Assembly: GCA_964583975.1 (NCBI GenBank) | Contig: CAZOXU010000003.1 | Span: forward strand, 7,805-71,804 | Direction of reading: 5' to 3' | Source: an uncultured Planctomycetales bacterium | GTDB lineage: Bacteria; Omnitrophota; Gorgyraeia; Zapsychrales; Fredricksoniimonadaceae | Length of the DNA stretch: 64,000 nt | In this document: positions 1 through 59,400 of the stretch, piece after piece | Numbering within the stretch: the first letter of the stretch is position 1 | Layout: each line of letters begins with the position of its first letter | Position numbers and translations under genes: made by a program | Notes under the pieces: generated by a model | The model's database searches: none | What the model saw: only the letters and a program-made list of their open reading frames with translations | Told to the model about the DNA's origin: nothing

Positions 1-613
1 CTTTAAAGGGCAACTTAACCATTTGTTGTTCAACCACAATCTGACTAAAACCTGCTTTTCTTAGCCTCGCTTCGATCTGATAAACATCGACAAAGCGATT
101 CAAATAATCGGTATCAAATCCTGCACGTTCAAGACTGTTAAACAATTCTTCACAAGTTCTTTCTCCAAACAAGGTTGCCTGAAGCAGTCCCCCGTCTTTA
201 AGAACGCGATGCGCCTCGCCAAAAGCCTCTAATAACTCGGGCATCCATTGAAAAGCAAAATTAGAGAACACCACATCAAAACTTTGATCAGCCAAGGGCA
301 TTTGCCTGGCATCAGCCAGAATAAAATTGATATCTTTATAATTGGTTTGCGCCTGTGTGATCATTCCTGGAGAGAAATCCAAGCCTGTCACTTGTGCTTG
401 CGCAAATCGCTGCCTGGCTTGAGCTGATAGATATCCTGTCCCACAACCAATATCCAAAATGTGCGTTGCCGGTTTTTTAGAATCATCAACTTCCTGGATC
501 AGCGAACGAGCAAATTGTTGATGAAGACTCGAAAGCTCATCGTATTGCCCAGCAGCCTGGCTAAAGGATCGGCTAACCTCTTCAGTTGATAAGAAAATTC
601 TCGAGAAGCTCAT
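1..613 (-). CDS. bioC: malonyl-ACP O-methyltransferase BioC (3' part runs off window start)
   Basis: Reverse-strand translation from ATG at 613..611 reads MSFSRIFLSTEEVSRSFSQAAGQYDELSSLHQQFARSLIQEV...ILDIGCGTGYLS (SAM motif I)...LKDGGLLQATLFGERT. This is a class I SAM-MTase of the BioC type. Start overlaps bioH stop. RBS AGAGGAAT upstream. Confidence 0.7.
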   Translation of the reverse strand, partial: MSFSRIFLSTEEVSRSFSQAAGQYDELSSLHQQFARSLIQEVDDSKKPATHILDIGCGTGYLSAQARQRFAQAQVTGLDFSPGMITQAQTNYKDINFILADARQMPLADQSFDVVFSNFAFQWMPELLEAFGEAHRVLKDGGLLQATLFGERTCEELFNSLERAGFDTDYLNRFVDVYQIEARLRKAGFSQIVVEQQMVKLPFK

Positions 614-1382
614 TATATTCCTCTGGCTTAGTTAAAAATGGCAGATGTCCACAACCGGCAATAAAATCAAGCCTGGCATTGAGCGCATGTTCTTGGATCC
701 AGTCCATGATTTGTCTTGGACACAAATAATCTTCTTCTCCAGTGATGTATTGCACAGGACAAATCAACGATGATAGCCGATCGCGCAAATCCGTGGTTTC
801 TAAAATCTTTAAAAACGACTGCAAGGCTTCGCGCTGTGGCAGCGGATCGGTAGCTCGTAAATCCTTAACCTTCTGATACGAAGGCAAACCTCTCTCCTTA
901 ACCGTAAAAAGCGAACGAAAGAAAATATCCAAGATCGACGCGTAATCACCTTCAAACTGATGCGAGAGTTTGCGGATATTATCAATATCAAGCCCAGCGG
1001 GATATGAGTCACTGCGGGCAAACTTAGGTAATGAGCCTACAAAGCTAATGCGAGAGACCCGCTCGGGATTAAGTCGATAGAGTTCCATCGCAACCAAACC
1101 ACCAAAGGAGCTCGCCACGATATTTAAATGAGCGATCTCAAGAATATCTAAGAGCTCACGCAAATCCTGGGCCATGCCTTGTAAAGTGACAGGCTGCCAC
1201 GAACTGCCTCCATGACCAGGCAGGTCGACTACGATCACAGAATAATGTCGATCTAAAAAGGCTTTTTGATTCGCCCACCAACGCACACTAGCGCCAAAAC
1301 CATGAATAAATAAAATAGCTTCGCCTTGACCAAAGGTCTCGTAGTGCCACTTAATACCTGAACGTGCTGTAAAATGATGCAT
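582..1382 (-). CDS. bioH: pimeloyl-ACP methyl ester esterase-like alpha/beta hydrolase (BioH-like)
   Basis: ORF 582..1505. Chosen start MHHFTARSGIKWHYETFGQGEAILFIHGFGAS (ATG 1382..1380) matches the BioH N-terminus and HGxG oxyanion region. GxSxG nucleophile motif present as SSFGG. Located between bioF and bioC. Confidence 0.6.
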   Translation of the reverse strand: MHHFTARSGIKWHYETFGQGEAILFIHGFGASVRWWANQKAFLDRHYSVIVVDLPGHGGSSWQPVTLQGMAQDLRELLDILEIAHLNIVASSFGGLVAMELYRLNPERVSRISFVGSLPKFARSDSYPAGLDIDNIRKLSHQFEGDYASILDIFFRSLFTVKERGLPSYQKVKDLRATDPLPQREALQSFLKILETTDLRDRLSSLICPVQYITGEEDYLCPRQIMDWIQEHALNARLDFIAGCGHLPFLTKPEEYNELLENFLIN

Positions 1383-1564
1383 GCTTAATCCTCTTAATGA
1401 TTCTAAGAACTTAGTTAGCATTTTTAAAGCGACTCTTGTCCCGACAATCTGCGTCGCTGATTCAGAAATACAGTCCGCAGGACGTTGTATTTCTGAAGGC
1501 ACCAAAAAACCTGCCTGCCGGCAGGCAGGGATTGGCGGAAAAAGACAAGCGGAGCGTAAAAATA

Positions 1565-2719
1565 CTAACTAAGTTCTTTTATAGCATCCAAAAGCTTATC
1601 CAAATCTCCCTGTGTATGCGTGGCCATGACCGTTACTCTCAATCGCGCCGTATTGACTGGCACGGTTGGCGGTCGAATGGCTTGCACAAAAATTCCTTTA
1701 AATCTCAAAGCTTCCGACACAGCCAGTGCTCGAGCTGCATCTTTCAATACCACTGGAATAATCGGAGTTGAGGAGTCCAGCGTATCAAAACCCAAATTCT
1801 TAAGACCTTGCCGAACATACTGCGCATTGTCTAAAACCTTCTGCCTGCGGTTGTCCTCTTGCTGAATGATATCGATAGCCTTTGAAGCTGCTGCGGCCAA
1901 GGCTGGCGGCAGAGATGTTGTATAAATAAAACTGCGTGCATGATTCACCAGATAATCGCAGAGCACCTTCGAGCCAGCCACATAAGCCCCATAACATCCA
2001 GCAGCCTTTGAGAAAGTTCCCATTTGAATATCGATCTTACGACTTAGGCCTTCTTCTTCAACCAAGCCTGCCCCGGTATTACCTAACACACCAAAGGCAT
2101 GAGCTTCATCGGTCATCACGTAGCACTGATAATGTTGAGCTAAGGCCACAATTTCTTTAAGCCTGGCTCGGTCGCCATCCATACTAAACACCGAGTCAGT
2201 CACAATCAGACGCTTTTTAAACTTAAGACTATCTTGCAAGGCTGCTTCGAGCGACTGCAGATCATTATGCGCATAACGTTTGAATTCGGCTCGGCTTAAG
2301 AGAATCCCATCAATAATCGAGGCATGATTGAGCCTATCTGAAAAAACAATATCTTCCCTACCAAACAAGGCTGGAATAATTCCAACATTGGCCATATAGC
2401 CACTGGAAAAAACTAAGGCTGCCTCGGTATTTTTAAACTTGGCAATCTTGCTCTCGAGCTGATGATGTGCCTGCATGCTGCCACACACCAATCGCGAAGC
2501 CCCGCTTCCAAAGCCGTCTTGACCAATCGCCGCTTTGGCAGCCTCTTTGATTCTTGGATCATCAGCGAGCCCCAGATAATTGTTCGAACAAAAATTAATG
2601 AGCCGCTCGCCTTCAATCACAATTTCGCGTGATTGAGAACCTTGCACCTCACGCAAGACCCGTAACATGGATTGGGATTCTAAAGCTTTTAAATCATCGG
2701 CTAAAATAGAATCGTTCAT
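1565..2719 (-). CDS. bioF: 8-amino-7-oxononanoate synthase
   Basis: 384 aa. PLP-dependent aminotransferase class II; lysine motif TFSKAAGCYGAY. Start ATG overlaps birA stop (ATGA). Confidence 0.85.
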   Translation of the reverse strand: MNDSILADDLKALESQSMLRVLREVQGSQSREIVIEGERLINFCSNNYLGLADDPRIKEAAKAAIGQDGFGSGASRLVCGSMQAHHQLESKIAKFKNTEAALVFSSGYMANVGIIPALFGREDIVFSDRLNHASIIDGILLSRAEFKRYAHNDLQSLEAALQDSLKFKKRLIVTDSVFSMDGDRARLKEIVALAQHYQCYVMTDEAHAFGVLGNTGAGLVEEEGLSRKIDIQMGTFSKAAGCYGAYVAGSKVLCDYLVNHARSFIYTTSLPPALAAAASKAIDIIQQEDNRRQKVLDNAQYVRQGLKNLGFDTLDSSTPIIPVVLKDAARALAVSEALRFKGIFVQAIRPPTVPVNTARLRVTVMATHTQGDLDKLLDAIKELS

Positions 2720-3670: not shown

Positions 3671-4810
3671 TTACTTTCGCATTTTTTCTACAATTAACTT
3701 CAACTGCTGCAAGAAATAATCTACATCTTCTTGGGCGCTCCATCGACCTAGGCTCACACGCAAACTTCCTAAAGCCATCTGATCTGACAATCCCAAGGCC
3801 TTAAGCACATGCGAGGGCTCTAAAATTCCACGCGAACAAGCTGACCCCTGAGAAACGGCAATACCTACCATATCAAGAGCCACAACTAATTGTTCGCCCG
3901 TAATGCCTTCAAAACAAAAATGGGCGTTATTGGGCAGGCGCTGTTTGCGATGTCCATTAAGCAGCACGCCTGTGATATTCTTCAGTACAAAATCAATGAT
4001 ATGGTCTCTTAAAACAACTTGCTTCTGGGCTTCAGAATCCATCGTCTGCTTGCAAAGTTCAATGGCGCGTGCCATCCCCACAATACCTGGTAAATTCTGC
4101 GTGCCTGCCCTTCTGGAAGTTTCCTGATCCCCTCCATAAAGCCTTGGTTCAATCGTTAATCCTTCTCTAACAAATAAAGCGCCTATGCCTAAGGGGCCGT
4201 AAAATTTATGGGCTGAGAGCGAGAGTAAATCGCAATTGATGTGTCGAATATTCACAGGAACATGCCCTACACTTTGAGTTGCATCAACCAAAAAACACAC
4301 ACCACGAGCTCGTGTGACCTCGCCTATCTCTTCAACTGGCTGGATAACGCCAATTTCATTATTAGCATGCTGCACAATGACTAAAATCGTATCTTCTCTA
4401 ATTAAATCGATAACTGATTTGGGTTGGATAACACCATAAACATCAGGTTGGACAAAGCTCACTTCAAAACCTAATTTGGAGAGGCGTTTGGATGGTTCAT
4501 TGACACTGGCATGTTCGATCGCTGAAACAATGACATGACGGCCTTTACTAAACAAACTTAAAGCCAGTGTCAAAATTGCCTGATTGTTGGATTCTGTGGC
4601 TGCGGAAGTAAACACAATCTCGGAGGGCTTGGCTCCTATAAAATCAGCGAGTATTTTACGGCTATCTTCGATGGCGCTATGGGCCCTTCGACCAAAACTA
4701 TGGGGACTAGATGCATTGCCAAAACGGTCAAAATAAAAAGGTCGCATGGCCTCAACAACTTGAGGATCAGTTGGGGTGGTAGAAGCATAATCTAGGTAAA
4801 TGTCGTCCAT
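3671..4810 (-). CDS. cysteine desulfurase (NifS/IscS family, class V aminotransferase)
   Basis: ORF 3671..4984. Start trimmed to MDDIYLDYASTTPTDPQVVEAM (ATG 4810..4808) because the longer N-extension would overlap tRNA-Ala. PLP lysine motif SLSAHKFYGPLGIGALF; SxxC(S)xG region SQGSACS. Confidence 0.8.
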   Translation of the reverse strand: MDDIYLDYASTTPTDPQVVEAMRPFYFDRFGNASSPHSFGRRAHSAIEDSRKILADFIGAKPSEIVFTSAATESNNQAILTLALSLFSKGRHVIVSAIEHASVNEPSKRLSKLGFEVSFVQPDVYGVIQPKSVIDLIREDTILVIVQHANNEIGVIQPVEEIGEVTRARGVCFLVDATQSVGHVPVNIRHINCDLLSLSAHKFYGPLGIGALFVREGLTIEPRLYGGDQETSRRAGTQNLPGIVGMARAIELCKQTMDSEAQKQVVLRDHIIDFVLKNITGVLLNGHRKQRLPNNAHFCFEGITGEQLVVALDMVGIAVSQGSACSRGILEPSHVLKALGLSDQMALGSLRVSLGRWSAQEDVDYFLQQLKLIVEKMRK

Positions 4811-4819
4811 AGGGTTTAT

Positions 4820-4848
4820 ATAATAAATATTCGTTTGCTTATTGTCAA
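4820..4848 (-). promoter_or_regulatory. sigma-70-type promoter of the nifS-birA-bioFHC operon: TTGACA (4848..4843) - N17 - TATTAT (4825..4820)
   Basis: Read on minus strand: ttgacaATAAGCAAACGAATATTtattat, 17-nt spacer. Leaves almost no leader before ATG at 4810, so either leaderless or an alternative start. Confidence 0.4.
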
Positions 4849-4873
4849 CTAAGTTAGGGGTCGGTGGTTTACA
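4842..4873. promoter_or_regulatory. candidate BirA operator (bioO-like) TTGTCAAC-N16-GGTTTACA overlapping the -35
   Basis: Imperfect inverted repeat resembling the TGTAAACC-N14-16-GGTTTACA BirA box. BirA here carries a DNA-binding N-terminal domain. Confidence 0.4.
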
Positions 4874-4908
4874 TATGCCCTTTGGGTCGTTGTGTGCCTG
4901 TCTGCTGG

Positions 4909-4937
4909 TTGACAAACCAGATGGGCAATGGTATATT
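4909..4937 (+). promoter_or_regulatory. sigma-70 promoter for tRNA-Ala: TTGACA (4909-4914) - N17 - TATATT (4932-4937)
   Basis: Near-consensus hexamers with 17-nt spacer, about 14 nt upstream of tRNA 5' end. Divergent from the bio operon promoter. Confidence 0.55.
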
Positions 4938-4950
4938 GGCGTCTCTATTT

Positions 4951-5024
4951 GGGGTTGTAGCTCAGTTTGGGAGAGCGCCTGCATGGCATGCAGGAGGTCA
5001 GGGGTTCAATCCCCCTCAACTCCA
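4951..5024 (+). tRNA. tRNA-Ala (anticodon GGC)
   Basis: GGGGTTGTAGCTCAGTTTGGGAGAGCGCCTGCATGGCATGCAGGAGGTCAGGGGTTCAATCCCCCTCAACTCCA. Anticodon loop ATGGCAT as in E. coli alaW/X. G3:U70 pair present. CCA not encoded. Confidence 0.85.
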
Positions 5025-5034
5025 TTCTACTTCG

Positions 5035-5109: not shown

Positions 5110-5361
5110 ATGTATTTTGTTTATATTTTTAAAAGCTTAAAAGATTCCACACGTTACTATATTGGCATTACTTCTAATCTTGAGAAAAGATTAGCTGAAC
5201 ATAACGCAGAAGAGAGCACTTACAGTAAAAGATACGCACCCTGGGAAATAGAAACTTATATTTCCTTTAGAAATGAAACATTAGCATTTAGTTTTGAGCA
5301 GTATTTAAAAGCCGGATCTGGTGTGGCTTTTTTGAAAAAAAGATTTCTTCCTAAAATGTGA
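5110..5361 (+). CDS. small GIY-YIG nuclease-superfamily protein (UPF0213/YhbQ-like)
   Basis: 84 aa: MYFVYIFKSLKDSTRYYIGITSNLEKRLAEHN... carries the GIY...YIG motif plus the conserved Arg/Glu. RBS AAGAGGG 4 nt before ATG. Confidence 0.7.
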   Translation: MYFVYIFKSLKDSTRYYIGITSNLEKRLAEHNAEESTYSKRYAPWEIETYISFRNETLAFSFEQYLKAGSGVAFLKKRFLPKM

Positions 5362-6924: not shown

Positions 6925-7874
6925 TTTTTCTCAACAAACTGGCCGACACTGCGGAATTTCTCGTAACGTTTTTCTAAAAGTTTATCGGTGGAGAGATTGC
7001 TTAACTTCTTGATATTCTTTAAAAGACTGGCCTTTAAAGTTTCAGCGGCCTCTTCATGATTACGATGGGCCCCACCCATAGGTTCAGCTACAATTTCATC
7101 AACCACGCCATGCTTAATCAAATCTTCCCCATGGAGTTTCAAAGCCTTGGCTGCTTCAGGGGCTTTTAAGGAACTACGCCAAAGGATTGAGGCGCAACCT
7201 TCAGGAGAAATTACTGAATAGTAAGCATGTTCTAAAATCAGCACTGTATCAGCCACACCAATCCCTAAGGCGCCACCGCTTCCACCCTCACCAATAATGA
7301 CCGCTACAACAGGTGTCTCGATATTCGACATGTCACGCAAGTTCTCAGCAATGGCCTGGGCTTGCCCGCGCTCTTCAGCTCCAATGCCAGGATAAGCTCC
7401 TGGAGTATCAATCAAGCAAACAACAGGCACATGGAATTTTGCTGCCATTCTCATTAAACGCATGGCTTTGCGGTAACCTTCAGGATGCGCACAGCCAAAA
7501 TTACGTTGCACATTTTCCTTAGTATCGCGACCTTTTTGATGGCCAAAAATCATAACCTTCACTCCATCAATCTTGGCAAAACCTCCGACAATCGATAGAT
7601 CATCAGCAAACAAGCGATCGCCATGCAATTCTAGAAAATCATCGCTCATCATCTTGATGTAATCTAAGGTGTAAGGCCGGCCAGGGTGACGGGCAATCTG
7701 CACTCTTTGCCAGGCGGAAAGATTCGAATAAATATCATTCTTTAATTTTTCTAACTTGGTTTCTAGACGCTTGATCTCTGGCTCGAGGGTCACTTTCTTA
7801 GAACCCATTTTGCGAAGATCATTAATCTTATTTTCAAGTTCAAGAATAGGTTTTTCAAAATCTAATTTGCTCAT
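6921..7874 (-). CDS. accA: acetyl-CoA carboxylase carboxyltransferase alpha subunit
   Basis: 317 aa, full-length AccA-like. Stop overlaps rlmN start. Confidence 0.9.
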   Translation of the reverse strand: MSKLDFEKPILELENKINDLRKMGSKKVTLEPEIKRLETKLEKLKNDIYSNLSAWQRVQIARHPGRPYTLDYIKMMSDDFLELHGDRLFADDLSIVGGFAKIDGVKVMIFGHQKGRDTKENVQRNFGCAHPEGYRKAMRLMRMAAKFHVPVVCLIDTPGAYPGIGAEERGQAQAIAENLRDMSNIETPVVAVIIGEGGSGGALGIGVADTVLILEHAYYSVISPEGCASILWRSSLKAPEAAKALKLHGEDLIKHGVVDEIVAEPMGGAHRNHEEAAETLKASLLKNIKKLSNLSTDKLLEKRYEKFRSVGQFVEKK

Positions 7875-8723: not shown

Positions 8724-9182
8724 TTAATACAAAATTAGGGTGCAAATGATTCCAAATACAAAACCTGCCAGAACCTGTATGGGGGTGTGTCCCACTAGTT
8801 CTATAAGTCTTTTTTCTTGAAGATGCCCCATCCAAATGTCATCCATCATTTTATTAAGAATGGTAGCTTGTTGGCCAGCTGCTCGCCTGACTCCCTGCGC
8901 ATCAAACATAATGACAAGGGCAAACACAGAAGATATGGCGAACATAGCTCCATCAAATCCATCTTGTAACCCTACCGCTGTAGCCAAGGCTGTTACTCCA
9001 GCCGCATGACTCGAAGGCATTCCTCCTGTACCGATAAACCAACGAAAATTAAACTTCTTCTCCCTAATAACCCCCAAAATAACCTTGGTTGATTGAGCAA
9101 ATATCCAAACCAGCAGGGTTATGAAGAATATACGATTATGTAGGAATTCTCTGGCAAAGGAATGTGTTGTCTGCAGTTCCAT
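8724..9182 (-). CDS. divergent PAP2-family membrane protein (DUF212/YuiD-like)
   Basis: 152 aa, multi-TM. GGMPSSHAA phosphatase motif 2. Confidence 0.6.
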   Translation of the reverse strand: MELQTTHSFAREFLHNRIFFITLLVWIFAQSTKVILGVIREKKFNFRWFIGTGGMPSSHAAGVTALATAVGLQDGFDGAMFAISSVFALVIMFDAQGVRRAAGQQATILNKMMDDIWMGHLQEKRLIELVGHTPIQVLAGFVFGIICTLILY

Positions 9183-9383: not shown

Positions 9384-10895
9384 ATGCTTGCCAAATCTTT
9401 TAGTTTTGCCCTGGCCGGGCTCGAGGCCTACTGCGTTACCATTGAAACCGACATAACCGATGGTCTTCCCCTAGTAACCATCGTTGGCCTGCCTGATAAT
9501 GCAGTCCGAGAAAGCCGCGAGCGAGTCAGGCTGGCCATTAAAAACAGCTCCTTGGGCTTTCCATCAGGACACCTAACCATCAATCTTGCCCCAGCTGATA
9601 TTAAAAAAGAAGGTCCGTCGTTTGATGTGGCCATTGCCTTAAGCGTGCTAGCCAGCAATGAACAAATCTCCTATGAATCCTTACGCCATTACGTTTTTTT
9701 AGGTGAGCTAGCACTCGATGGCAGCATCCGACCTATCAACGGAGCCCTTCCTATTGCCTTGGCCTGTGATCCTAAAGTATTTAAAGGTCTGATCGTTCCT
9801 GCAGCCAATGCCAAGGAAGCAGCCCTGGCTAATACGGTTAATATCTATGCTGCTAATTACCTTAAAGAAATTGTCCATTTTCTTTCTAACCCAGAGAGTA
9901 TAAAGCCAACCCCCTGCGAAGGAATAAATCTGCTTAATGAAAAAAGACGCTATCCCTTGGACTTTGCTGATGTCAAAGGCCAAATCCATGTCAAACGCGG
10001 TCTCGAAATTGCCGCGGCAGGCGGACACAACGTGCTAATGATCGGGCCACCAGGAAGCGGCAAAACCATGTTAGCCAAGCGCGTGCCCTCCATCTTACCT
10101 GATATGACCTTAAGTGAGGCCCTGGACATTACCAAGATCTATTCGGTGATGGGGCTTAACACCAAAGGCATTGTCACGGCTCGACCTTTTCGCTCGCCTC
10201 ATCACACAGCCTCGGATATTGCCTTGATTGGTGGCGGTTCAAACCCCAAACCCGGTGAAGTCAGCCTAGCCCATAACGGTGTTTTGTTTCTTGATGAATT
10301 AGGTGAATTCTCCAGGCATGTGCTGGAAGTTCTTCGCCAGCCCTTGGAAGATCATTGGGTAACCGTCTCCCGAGCCAGTCGAACGCTTCGCTTTCCAGCC
10401 GGCTTCATGCTGATTGCCGCAATGAACCCGTGTTTTTGTGGGTGGCTCATGAGCTCCCAGAGACGATGTCAATGCTCGCCAAACGATATCCAAAAATATC
10501 TCGCCAAAATTTCTGGCCCCATGCTTGATCGCATTGACCTACATCTACAAGTGCCAGGCCTTAAAACGCATGAGATGCTCCATGCTCCTTTAACTGAAAG
10601 TTCTAGTGAGATTAAACAACGGACAGCTAAGGCACGAAAGTTACAACAACGGCGTTTTAACAACACTAACGCCCACATGAATTCCGAACAATTAAAACAA
10701 TATTGTGCGCTTGATGAAGCTGCTCGCGAGCTCCTTAAAAAAGCGATTGATACGCTAGGTCTTTCGGCCCGCGCCCACGATAAGATTCTAAGAGTGGCTC
10801 GAACAATTGCGGATTTAGCAGACAGAGAAAACATCCAGCCCGAACATATTGCAGAGGCGATCAGCTATCGGGCGTTGGATAGGATACATCAATGA
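9384..10895 (+). CDS. comM: YifB/ComM family Mg-chelatase-like AAA+ ATPase
   Basis: 503 aa. N-terminal Lon-like domain. Walker A GPPGSGKT. C-terminal helical domain. Confidence 0.85.
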   Translation: MLAKSFSFALAGLEAYCVTIETDITDGLPLVTIVGLPDNAVRESRERVRLAIKNSSLGFPSGHLTINLAPADIKKEGPSFDVAIALSVLASNEQISYESLRHYVFLGELALDGSIRPINGALPIALACDPKVFKGLIVPAANAKEAALANTVNIYAANYLKEIVHFLSNPESIKPTPCEGINLLNEKRRYPLDFADVKGQIHVKRGLEIAAAGGHNVLMIGPPGSGKTMLAKRVPSILPDMTLSEALDITKIYSVMGLNTKGIVTARPFRSPHHTASDIALIGGGSNPKPGEVSLAHNGVLFLDELGEFSRHVLEVLRQPLEDHWVTVSRASRTLRFPAGFMLIAAMNPCFCGWLMSSQRRCQCSPNDIQKYLAKISGPMLDRIDLHLQVPGLKTHEMLHAPLTESSSEIKQRTAKARKLQQRRFNNTNAHMNSEQLKQYCALDEAARELLKKAIDTLGLSARAHDKILRVARTIADLADRENIQPEHIAEAISYRALDRIHQ

Positions 10896-11353
10896 GAAAA
10901 CCTTCTCGGAAGAATTTAAGATTGAAAAATTGGGATTATTCTTCGGCAGGATATTATTTTGTAACCATATGCACACAAAATCGTTTTCCATATTTAAAAA
11001 ATCCTGACATAAACAATATACTCCATCAAACGTGGTGTGAATTAAAACAGAAATATGACAATATTGTGTTGGATGAATTTATCATCCTGCCCAATCATAT
11101 TCATGGAATCATTATCATCGTAGGGGCGGACCTATGTGTCCGCCCACAATTAGGGTCGACCCCTACGTTGGGCGAAATGATCCGTTGGTTCAAAACAATG
11201 ACCACAAATTATTTTATTCACGGGGTAAATAAATCTGGATGGAAACCATTCTTGGGTAGATTATGGCAACGCAATTATTACGAACATATCATCCGTAATG
11301 AACGATCTCTTTACGACATGCGACGATATATCACACATAATCATATGGAATAA
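10892..11353 (+). CDS. REP-associated tyrosine transposase (RAYT; IS200/IS605-like Y1 HUH transposase)
   Basis: 153 aa. HUH motif LPNHIHGII. Catalytic Tyr region WQRNYYEHIIRN. ATG overlaps comM stop (ATGA). Confidence 0.7.
   Translation: MRKPSRKNLRLKNWDYSSAGYYFVTICTQNRFPYLKNPDINNILHQTWCELKQKYDNIVLDEFIILPNHIHGIIIIVGADLCVRPQLGSTPTLGEMIRWFKTMTTNYFIHGVNKSGWKPFLGRLWQRNYYEHIIRNERSLYDMRRYITHNHME
11120..11166. repeat. REP-like palindrome GTAGGGGCGGAC..GTCCGCCC..GGGTCGACCCCTAC embedded in-frame in the RAYT gene
   Basis: Perfect outer inverted repeat GTAGGGG/CCCCTAC and inner GGGCGGAC/GTCCGCCC. Encodes VGADLCVRPQLGSTPT, inserted between the HUH motif and the downstream conserved helix. Confidence 0.6.
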
Positions 11354-56400: not shown

Positions 56401-59400
56401 ATACCTCTATATGTCCAGCAGCTCCTTCAACTTCTACTGCAAATCTTTTATAGCTCACTTGGGCTTGCTCATCTTGTGCGATCTTAAATTCCCTGGCGTC
56501 TTGAGGGTCATTAATTCCTTGCCTTAATAAAGCGTATCGCTGCTCTTTTCCTTCTTGATCCTTGATGACTAAATAAGGTCTAACGCCAATCGGCTTGATC
56601 TTTATGAAATCAAATAAGAATCCTTCCCAAACTCCTTCGGCATAAGCATAGAATTTCTGGTCAAAAATGGTCTTTAGAATTCCTTCCTCGGGCATATTCT
56701 TACACGTAATAACCACTAATACTTCGTGCCCCTTGTTATCACCAACACGATACATGCTTTGATTGTCTGCAGTCTCTACCATCTCCAATAAACCCCCACT
56801 ATTTTCGACAATGAACATGCCCACCTTGCTGAAATATTGGAAGTTTAATTCATCCATTAGTTGACGGAATCTTGGATATTTCTTAGCATCATCCCCCACC
56901 AAAATATCTATTAGTTCACCGAGCTTTTCAGCCAAATCAACAGAACTTTCCTTAGCTAAATCAATTAAATCATCACGCAATTTTTGGACTGTTGCCAAAT
57001 CTTCATTGACTTTACTTATTTGCTTGGAAAGTTCCTCTTGGGCAGCCAGCGATGCTTGCACGGCTTTTTCATAATCTTCTCCCGCATGGCCTTCGGCTGC
57101 CAGATGCTTGGCCTTATCTAATTTCTTATGTGCTTCTTTTTCTAATTCTTTAGCTTTGGTGAAACTTACTGAGGGGTTTTTAAACATTCGGAAATCTTTT
57201 ACCAACTTATCAACGAGTTTGACTACTTGAGCAGCTCGCTCATGGTAGGCAATGATGTCTTTGATTTCTGTGGAATCATAAGGAACCCGGCCAAAACTCA
57301 AACGGCGGGAAATGGCCTCAGGTGCTGAGCAAGCACTTAAGAAAAATGCAAAAAATAGGCTAATCAATGCCATCAGACTCCAAGGCATTGATCCAGATTG
57401 TGCTGATGCTTGGGCTTCTTTAACAGTATGGGCTTTTAATTTTTGCCACACCATGCTCGCACGAGTGAAGACCAGAGCAATTTTTAAATCTTGATAATAC
57501 GCTTCTAAGATTTCACGGATTTGTTCATCAGAATAATATCCATCTAAATATCGAATGGTTTCACTGAAATAGAGATGTTTTATAGCTGGTAGAAGCAAAG
57601 CTGAAGATGGGTCAATGCCTATGAGAAGAAGGTTTGCTTCCATCATCCGACGAGCTGATTTCGAACGCAAGGTCAAAAAATCACCTTCATCGCTTGTTGG
57701 GTTTTCTTTCGTGATACTCATAGCACTCTTCGCATCCTTAAGAAGCTCCGCTGCCGTGACCACATTATTATCAGAATGTTTGCGAATTCCCGTCATCGGC
57801 CAATCTCGCAGACCGTCTGCTTTTAAGAAAACACCAACATTAGCGATGATGGTTAAATGATGGGTTTTCTTTGCCAATGACTCAGCAGTCATAAAAAGAA
57901 TGTCCGCACGAGATGTATGCAAGGCATACTCACCATTAAAAATTCTCCTGTTTAATGGCATAATTCTTACTTTTAGGGTGTCTTGTAAATTAATCCCTTC
58001 AACAATGACTTCAATATCAAGATCTGCTGGAGATTGTTTAAACCCATAAACAAAACTTCCTACCAAAATAATACTAACGATACGGCCTTGGCGATTGGTA
58101 TGTTTATACAGCTCTTGGGTCAACATTTCTCTTAAAGCTTCTACATCAATCATTTCAACGCGTTTAACAAATTCAGCAATTTGTTGATTGTCCATTCTTC
58201 CATAAATCGTACGTTGTCTGATTTGCTCTGAATAAGAGGGCGACGGTCCAGCTTCTGCAAATTCTTCTAATAAGCGAACATATTCTAATTGGGTCAGTTT
58301 ACTAAAGGCCGGAGATTTAACCCATTTCATTAATGAACGAATTTCGTCACGGCGTTTCTTGTTAACGTTTTTATCATCAGATTTTACAAGTTGAACGTAA
58401 TAATCTTGCACCATAGGCACATAAGATTGGGCTCCTTCCCCTTGTGATGCTCCGGCGATGATAACCGCCCAGGCACGCCAATTATTCATTCGTAACCAAG
58501 CTATTAATTCTTTCTTGATTTGACCATTGATTGATTCATCTTCAACAAAGCTATAGCTTAAGCGGAAAAGGTCTTGCAACCTTGCATCGGTAGCTAAAAA
58601 TCCGAATCGACGGGCACGTTGCAATTTTTTAAGGAGTTTAGGAATCTCTTTAACTTTGAAAGCTTGTAGATTTTCAGGATATTTTGCTCCACCCAAGAAT
58701 AATCTTGTTTCAGATGATAAATGACGCCAATTATCAAGTAGTTGTTTGAGCTTGTGCACTATTCCAGTTATTTGGTAAATAGTAATTATGACAACCGTCA
58801 GTATCCCAATGTCAATTAATGCATAAAGGACACCTTTCATTCCTTCTGCCTTTTGCAAGATAAGGAAAAATGAACTTTCAAGTAGTGTGGCTGCTAGAAA
58901 CAATAGTACTGCTGGGACAGAAATCATGGCGCGAACCTTAGGTAAACTAAAATACGGTCGTTCTTCGCGAAGCAGAATGTCGATTTGCTCATCAGGATTA
59001 ACTAGTACTACCGTCACCTTATTTTTTGGTTCCAGATATAGCTGAAATAGGTTTGGAATATGTTCCCCTTTCACCTGAGCAACGGGAACATAATCACCTG
59101 TTGTCCCCTGATTACTTGGCACAGTAAAATCAATTCTTCGTCCTTCATGGGGAATGACAAATGGCGTCTCAGTATCAAATTTAATACCCTCACCTAAATC
59201 GCGATATTCCTGCATCACACATAATTGTCCTGCTTGATTAAAATAGACAATTACGTCATTTTTGTGGTTAATCAAACGAATTCTCAGGGTTTCTTTCCTA
59301 TTGAGATTAATGCGATAAATACTCGCTGGAAATTCCTGAACGCGCACCTGAAGGGCATCGAAAGTTAATGCAGCACTTGATTTTCTTCTAGGATGTCCTG

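Follow-up and report, generated by a model that had tools for sequence, protein, structure and literature searches.

A predicted BirA operator at the promoter of a cysteine desulfurase-birA-bioF operon in an uncultured Omnitrophota bacterium

The DNA studied here is a stretch of 64 kb from contig CAZOXU010000003.1 of an uncultured member of the Omnitrophota (the whole stretch is called the window, and positions without a locus label are those of the window). In it, a spacer of 139 bp (4811-4949) separates two divergent genes, a cysteine desulfurase gene (nifS) on the minus strand and a tRNA-Ala(GGC) gene on the plus strand. The desulfurase gene begins at position 4810 of the minus strand, reading MDDIYLDYASTTP, and is followed by birA, which codes for a biotin-protein ligase, and by genes of biotin synthesis. 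An earlier reading of this DNA (the original prediction) had placed in the spacer a box for the biotin repressor BirA and one promoter for each of the two genes, and all of these elements lie, exact to the base, where it had put them. From the sequence and its comparison with related loci we consider it very probable that positions 4840-4876 are the operator of the bifunctional ligase/repressor BirA encoded two genes downstream, and that the whole mechanism proposed below would apply. The coordinates of all features are collected in Table 1.

The putative BirA box and the two promoters of the spacer

On the minus strand, which is the coding strand of nifS, positions 4876..4840 read aTGTAAACC-N15-aGTTGACAA. 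Seen on the plus strand the box consists of TTGTCAAC (4842-4849) and GGTTTACA (4866-4873) with a 16-nt gap between them. It is an inverted repeat of the form TTGTAAACC-N14-16-GGTTTACAA, which is the form of BirA operators: the published consensus is TTGTAAACC-[N14/15]-GGTTTACAA (PMC545781), and bioO of Escherichia coli, which we took directly from the MG1655 genome, reads TTGTAAACC-N16-GGTTTACAA. The resemblance to the BirA consensus claimed by the original prediction is borne out by two measures. No other site in the window matches TTGTAAACC-N12-18-GGTTTACAA as well as the box, which agrees in 15 of 18 positions, and the box scores 35.0 bits with a weight matrix made from 26 sites of Omnitrophota relatives, from which the window site was left out. 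The maximum of 20 shuffles is 21.8 bits, and with a runner-up of only 13.1 bits as the next distinct site the matrix finds no second operator in the 64-kb window. A near-palindrome at 58359-58389, which lies inside a giant open reading frame (ORF), was rejected as an operator at 8.4 bits. The 8-mer TGTAAACC by itself is uninformative (one found, 1.9 expected).

Sites that agree with the sigma-70 consensus in at least 11 of 12 positions were searched for on both strands of the 64 kb. Just two were found, about 1.8 being expected window-wide. Both fall into this one 139-bp spacer and each points at its gene. They combine a -35 TTGACA with a TATAAT-like -10 at a distance of 17 nt, within the 16-18 nt expected of sigma-70 promoters, and both are conserved in relatives. 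The promoter of nifS, TTGACA-N17-TATTAT, matches 11 of the 12 consensus positions, and its -35 hexamer lies within the proximal half-site of the box, which confirms the overlap of box and promoter that had been predicted. The inverted repeat formed by 4842-4849 and 4908-4915 was rejected as a separate 8-nt element, as it is made up of the two extended -35 boxes facing apart. Rfam detects no riboswitch or leader RNA in the window; its sole matches are two tRNAs.

The original prediction called the desulfurase gene nearly leaderless. Its ATG (4810..4808) follows the -10 hexamer after 9 nt, and these 9 nt (ATAAACCCT) contain no Shine-Dalgarno sequence. From the -35 to the ATG at 4810 there is no in-frame ATG, GTG or TTG, and the N-terminus MDDIYLDY aligns to residue 1 of the orthologues. 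A short distance between -10 and ATG is found in ten of 14 nifS promoters, nine of them with 6-9 nt: it is 9 nt in L003, L004 and L006 (L004 also shares the TATTAT hexamer), 7 nt in L016 and L084, 6 nt in L005, L082 and L087b, and 7 nt in L001, if the second ATG of the latter is taken as the start. The promoters of the receptor genes described below (n = 5) have 6-7 nt between -10 and start codon. The leaders of L002 and L017 are longer and have a GGAG(G) Shine-Dalgarno sequence, and those of L009 and L083 are long as well. Shine-Dalgarno sequences are in use elsewhere in the window, such as AGAGGA ahead of bioH. Because the ATG follows the -10 after 6-9 nt in most of the orthologous promoters, transcription probably starts at the A of the desulfurase ATG or a few nucleotides from it, and the mRNA would be leaderless or nearly leaderless and devoid of a Shine-Dalgarno sequence, as had been supposed. 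A transcription start far upstream is unlikely because the spacer ends at the divergent tRNA gene.

The protein that would bind the box is encoded in the operon itself. BirA of the window matches HTH_11 (E 7.7e-17), TIGR00122 (E 1.8e-16) and also TIGR00121, and it aligns over its full length with the class II BirA structures of E. coli and Staphylococcus aureus (1BIA, 3RIR). In the alignment, the Ser-Arg-Ala of the recognition helix is conserved as S28-R29-A30; in E. coli all three residues are needed for DNA binding (PMC5640590). BirA of the window is therefore of class II, with a DNA-binding winged helix at its N-terminus.

Table 1. Positions of the features in and around the spacer.
Feature	Position	Strand	Remarks
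BirA operator (predicted)	4840..4876	-	ATA-TGTAAAC-C-N15-A-GTTGACA-ATA
Distal half-site TGTAAAC	4873..4867	-	part of the predicted operator
Proximal half-site GTTGACA	4849..4843	-	part of the predicted operator
-35 TTGACA of the nifS promoter	4848..4843	-	inside the proximal half-site
-10 TATTAT of the nifS promoter	4825..4820	-	17-nt spacer from the -35
Cysteine desulfurase, class I (NifS/IscS-like), 379 aa	3671..4810	-	PF00266, 290 bits
birA, class II biotin-protein ligase/repressor with N-terminal winged helix-turn-helix	2716..3669	-	HTH_11, BPL_LplA_LipB, BPL_C
bioF, 8-amino-7-oxononanoate synthase	1565..2719	-	TIGR00858, 509.9 bits (cut-off 426)
Terminator-like hairpin CCTGCCTGCCGGCAGGCAGG, then T6	1503..1529	-	after bioF; 8 bp, G+C-rich
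BioH-like alpha/beta hydrolase	582..1382	-	start according to the gene call of L081; AGAGGA upstream
bioC, methyltransferase	1..613	-	cut by the window edge
tRNA promoter TTGACA-N17-TATATT, upstream TG	4909..4937	+	-35 4909-4914, -10 4932-4937; 11/12 match
tRNA-Ala(GGC)	4950..5025	+	Rfam

Related loci and alternative explanations

Homologues of the desulfurase were searched for in 185,579 species genomes, and the loci L082-L091 were added through a metagenome scan with a BirA alignment. The closest homologues belong to metagenome-assembled genomes of Candidatus Omnitrophota (some of them labelled Planctomycetales) and share at most 63% of their amino acids with the desulfurase of the window. 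Of the 24 closest loci, about 20 have the order nifS-birA, and many go on to bioF-bioH-bioC. In the closest relatives the operon runs nifS-birA-bioF-bioH-bioC-bioD-bioA and is followed by mnmA. The operon of L082 is interrupted by an inserted TPR gene, and bioD and bioA are separate there; a bioD-bioA fusion of about 685 aa occurs in L083 (14157-16205) and L087 (13787-15847).

Upstream of nifS, the motif ATTGTAAACC-N14(13-15)-GGTTGACAAT is present in 13 relatives (L001-L006, L009, L016, L017, L082-L084 and L087), each time with a -10 hexamer 17 nt after the TTGACA (18 nt in L082). Box and promoter are not confined to this gene. According to the original prediction similar boxes should stand upstream of other bio genes, and in the related genomes this is the case: box and promoter lie between birA and bioB-bioF in L011, L021 and L086, and directly ahead of birA-bioFHCD in L085, which has no nifS there. 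In seven further loci (L007, L008, L010, L012, L013, L015, L018) they lie between birA and a gene for a BtuB-like TonB-dependent receptor, and in L090 and L091 the box follows the end of birA on contigs that stop short of the next gene. At least eight loci without bio genes downstream have no box ahead of nifS; in these, a larE-like gene precedes nifS and no bio genes come after birA.

The same picture emerges from the counts. In the 1.53 Mb of fetched loci, all weight-matrix hits of at least 20 bits adjoin birA or bio genes, as do the 26 sites of the matrix and one site of L086 which is outside this set. Exact matches to TGTNAAC-N14-20-GTTNACA number 17, while about 0.3 would be expected by calculation. 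Matches with one mismatch at other places (about 11) are at chance level. The box thus tracks the biotin genes and birA and not the desulfurase. Judged from these loci, the predicted operator-promoter design is a conserved trait of the Omnitrophota and not peculiar to the genome of the window. Of the unusual arrangement which the original prediction saw here, it stands that a desulfurase gene leads a biotin operon under the box; the arrangement is, however, not unique but conserved across the phylum. In L087 two operator-promoter cassettes (6969-7000 and 8796-8827) are nearly identical, spacer included, with two base differences; one stands ahead of nifS and the other ahead of an ORF of 554 aa with a weak PMT_2-like match, and the regulatory cassette seems to have been duplicated recently.

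Comparison of the 26 sites reveals which positions are kept. G-T-x-A-A-A-C and G-T-T-G-A-C-A-A-T (GTTGACAAT) are nearly invariant, while spacer and flanks diverge. The distal half GT.AAAC is present in all 26 sites at a fixed distance of 15-17 nt, although the proteins are only about 50% identical, and its variable position 4 is an A in 20 of them. The proximal half carries in 25 of the 26 sites the base that makes TTGACA. The full hexamer is found in 24, the exceptions being TTAACA in L085 and TTGACG in L086, and a -10 hexamer follows 16-18 nt downstream in 25 of the 28 tabulated promoters. As judged from the delta-proteobacterial BirA sites (TTGTcAACC-N14-GGTTgACAA, PMC545781), BirA tolerates either base. 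Selection for a consensus -35 within the operator is therefore the best explanation of the asymmetry between the halves; a dual constraint would act on the proximal half-site, as part of the operator and as -35.

Apart from a BirA operator, the box could belong to another regulator of the desulfurase, for instance to an Rrf2/IscR-type sensor of iron-sulfur (Fe-S) clusters or of cysteine, in which case its likeness to BirA sites would be coincidental. The first gene downstream is indeed a desulfurase gene, and such genes are often under Fe-S-sensing regulators. However, the box also stands ahead of the bioB-bioF and birA-bioF operons without nifS (L011, L021, L085, L086), it is missing at the nifS genes that no bio genes follow, its half-sites are those of the BirA consensus, and no Rrf2 gene is adjacent. 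Because it follows biotin genes and birA, a regulator sensing Fe-S clusters or cysteine is argued against, and we regard this explanation as most improbable. One could also see in the box only a strong promoter, with -35 and upstream element, in which no repressor takes part and TGTAAAC is either UP-like or due to chance. As an extended -35 the proximal half is perfect (GTTGACAA), and the same 8-mer makes up the -35 of the tRNA promoter. But the tRNA promoters share this -35 without having TGTAAAC at a fixed distance, and an invariant distal half at a fixed distance, combined with a free spacer, points to a dimeric DNA-binding protein rather than to an A/T-rich UP element, so that a promoter alone seems very unlikely.

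Some points weigh against the BirA operator as proposed here. The half-sites of the window are spaced by N15, those of most relatives by N14; N15 is also found in L002 and L084, and the consensus permits N14 or N15. The related sites were gathered with a pattern derived from the consensus, hence their sequence likeness is partly there by construction; the independent evidence is their location. As to the start of the transcript, 9 nt is among the longest distances compatible with a truly leaderless transcript, and a leader of 1-4 nt is equally possible. Finally, a terminator-like hairpin follows bioF. Therefore the predicted control by BirA appears secure for nifS-birA-bioF and is less certain for bioH-bioC-bioD.

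The operon genes, the divergent tRNA genes and the possible role of the desulfurase

The gap between nifS and birA is 1 nt, and bioF overlaps the stop of birA by 4 nt. The end of bioC and the start of bioD are supplied by L081, a Logan contig of 4,153 bp with an identical BioF, on which bioD follows bioC. The spacer between bioF and bioH (188 nt; 1383-1564) folds far better than its shuffles (z-score -6.2) and is mostly missing in relatives; ahead of bioH it offers a weak promoter-like site followed by a Shine-Dalgarno sequence. A palindrome, CCTGCCTGCCGGTAGGCAGG, which is nearly identical to the CCTGCCTGCCGGCAGGCAGG hairpin, lies in the gap between bioC and bioD just past the window edge (L081 3790-3812). 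Possibly the hairpin between bioF and bioH is a small, dispersed palindrome that also serves as a terminator. The transcript may therefore comprise nifS-birA-bioF, with bioH-bioC-bioD being reached by read-through or from a weak internal promoter. Of the nifS-birA-bioFHC operon proposed originally, the order of the genes and the tight coupling of nifS-birA-bioF hold, while the hairpin may separate bioH-bioC from them.

The desulfurase has the fold of class V aminotransferases (PF00266) and carries the pyridoxal-phosphate lysine motif SAHKFYGP and the catalytic loop SQGSACS of class I enzymes. Its scores are below the equivalog cut-offs both for NifS (TIGR03402, 454.9 versus 530.75) and for IscS (TIGR02006, 377.7 versus 643.2); therefore we assign it to the class I desulfurase family and to no narrower group.

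On the other side of the spacer, the promoter TTGACA-N17-TATATT that had been predicted for tRNA-Ala was confirmed. A tRNA-Ala(GGC)-tRNA-Leu(CAA) pair is divergent from nifS in L002, L006, L009, L016 and L017, as well as in L001, where it is about 4 kb off, and co-directional with nifS in L003 and L004. The divergent copies each have TTGACA-N17-TATATT or TATAGT, and between operator and tRNA promoter lie about 30 bp in the window and up to about 150 bp in relatives. The two promoters appear independent because this distance varies and the tRNA -35 comes without a distal half-site; for the same reasons a control of the tRNA promoter by BirA was rejected. We infer that the tRNA promoter, 60 bp away, is constitutive and independent and has no more than the short spacer in common with the nifS promoter. 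An ORF of 83 aa with a GIY-YIG domain lies between tRNA-Ala and tRNA-Leu in the window (5110-5361, plus strand); the gap between the two tRNA genes is about 490 nt in L006 and L016 as well, and 6-200 nt in the other relatives.

A desulfurase gene at the head of this operon could mean that the enzyme is a dedicated supplier of sulfur or Fe-S clusters, regulated by biotin demand, which rebuilds the sacrificial cluster of biotin synthase. BioB is described (PMC8300815, citing Kiyasu 2000) as destroying its own [2Fe-2S] cluster at each turnover and as being stimulated by NifS/IscS in vitro, which makes such a link plausible. In addition, nifS shows translational coupling to birA-bioF, in 14 loci it stands under the BirA box, and nifS-birA-bioB-bioF are contiguous in L011, L021, L024 and L086. 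Against this, a tblastn search with Omnitrophota BioB found no bioB in the window or, in the closest relatives, in the 10 kb on each side of birA. The adjacency of nifS and birA also persists, without a box, where only the receptor gene comes after. Moreover, the neighbours mnmA and a larE-like sulfur transferase gene point to general sulfur trafficking. We consider a dedicated supplier doubtful, and a sulfur-donor link to BioB is speculative and weakened by synteny. It is more likely that a desulfurase of general sulfur trafficking shares the autoregulated promoter of birA.

The gene order around the BirA-regulated genes fits such a view of the locus. The gene of the tRNA 2-thiouridine synthase MnmA comes after these genes in L082 (16703-17833), L083 (16507-17655) and L012 (10075-11133); it lies downstream of bioA in L082 and L083, and downstream of the receptor gene in L012 and L015. 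A gene for a larE-like PP-loop sulfur transferase precedes nifS in eight loci that have no box at nifS (L007, L008, L010, L012, L013, L015, L018, L024). The conserved frame resembles a cluster of sulfur-trafficking genes, with birA and its targets inserted in it.

The receptor gene is found in box-carrying Omnitrophota loci without adjacent genes of biotin synthesis. It is an ORF of about 600 aa just after birA (e.g. L008 8152-10006), usually with a conserved protein of 96 aa after it; its product is BtuB-like and TonB-dependent, the match to TIGR01779 (98 bits) being far under the cut-off. This box-driven receptor is a candidate for an outer-membrane biotin uptake system. That the BirA regulon of the Omnitrophota would extend to sulfur mobilisation by way of the desulfurase and, in biotin-auxotrophic relatives, to the BtuB-like receptor as an outer-membrane biotin importer is a tentative idea which we judge to be rather unlikely.

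Two further ORFs of the window should be mentioned. An uninterrupted ORF of 13,519 aa (23411-63970, minus strand) occupies about 63% of it. The Pfam domains detected in the 9,000 aa that were scanned are limited to a sigma-70 region 4-like helix-turn-helix, a nucleotidyl-transferase domain and a C-terminal histidine phosphatase, and the ORF fits the "very long proteins" reported for Omnitrophota. An ORF at 10892-11353 (plus strand) codes for an IS200-like Y1 transposase.

The proposed mechanism and known BirA systems

By analogy to E. coli and S. aureus, BirA would hold biotinyl-5'-AMP and dimerise when biotin is ample and little unbiotinylated carboxyl-carrier protein is present. The dimer would then occupy the half-sites TGTAAAC and GTTGACA and span roughly -66 to -30. 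The proximal half-site being the -35 hexamer, bound BirA would shut out RNA polymerase. This should repress nifS-birA-bioF and, through read-through, bioH-bioC-bioD (as well as bioA, as in the relatives), and birA would thereby be autoregulated. A rising demand for biotin would use up the adenylate, BirA would leave the DNA and the near-consensus promoter would fire. Such a negative autoregulation may guarantee the basal expression needed both by an essential ligase and by a housekeeping desulfurase.

The comparison with bioO and BirA of E. coli reveals what is common and what is particular. Both systems have inverted half-sites of the TTGTAAACC type and a BirA of class II that carries a winged helix at its N-terminus; in both the operator overlaps promoter elements, so that repression works by occlusion, as is predicted for the window; and the logic of a dimerisation driven by biotinyl-5'-AMP is assumed to be equal. 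In contrast, the spacing is N15 in the window and N14 in most relatives but N16 in E. coli, and a single unidirectional promoter takes the place of the two face-to-face promoters between bioA and bioBFCD. Unlike in E. coli, birA is itself part of the regulated operon and hence predicted to be autoregulated, and a cysteine desulfurase gene, probably on a leaderless mRNA, comes first. Among Proteobacteria, autoregulation of birA has been reported only for Desulfovibrionales (PMC5343134).

Closer in sequence are the BirA sites predicted for delta-proteobacteria by Rodionov et al. 2004 (PMC545781), which show the same half-site variant TGTcAAC/GTTgACA, are spaced by N14, lie upstream of bioB, bioF and bioW and were found by the same comparative-genomic logic. 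While the C/G is present there in both halves, it is restricted here to the promoter-proximal half, where it coincides with the -35. The delta-proteobacterial sites lie 63-182 nt upstream of start codons and their genes have leaders.

For the neighbourhood of desulfurase and mnmA, gene pairs of the YrvO-MnmA type, consisting of a desulfurase and a thiouridylase gene, are known from Bacillus. They share with the Omnitrophota loci a class I cysteine desulfurase in the vicinity of mnmA. In the latter, however, birA and BirA-regulated genes intervene between the two.

In the searchable literature we found no BirA sites in Omnitrophota, no BirA-regulated desulfurase and no TonB-dependent biotin receptor, and the searches for leaderless mRNAs in Omnitrophota returned nothing relevant. 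The biotin pathways of the phylum have been termed "uniformly partial" by surveys (bioRxiv 10.64898/2026.06.07.730766). The mechanism itself would be an ordinary, textbook bioO/BirA system in a new lineage, all features of such a system that were looked for in the sequence being present.

Hardly any Omnitrophota are in culture, and for this phylum the locus provides a concrete regulatory element, composed of a predicted operator, a promoter, a probable leaderless start and the putative repressor; it suggests that both the sigma-70 consensus and the BirA code hold there. The conserved cassette could be used as a marker for biotin-related genes in Omnitrophota genomes. The approach also brings up a candidate for a biotin receptor of the outer membrane and suggests that biotin demand and sulfur mobilisation may be linked by regulation. 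As the mechanism is a textbook one, the value of the finding lies therefore in the annotation and in the hypotheses it offers on vitamin dependence in host-associated nanobacteria.

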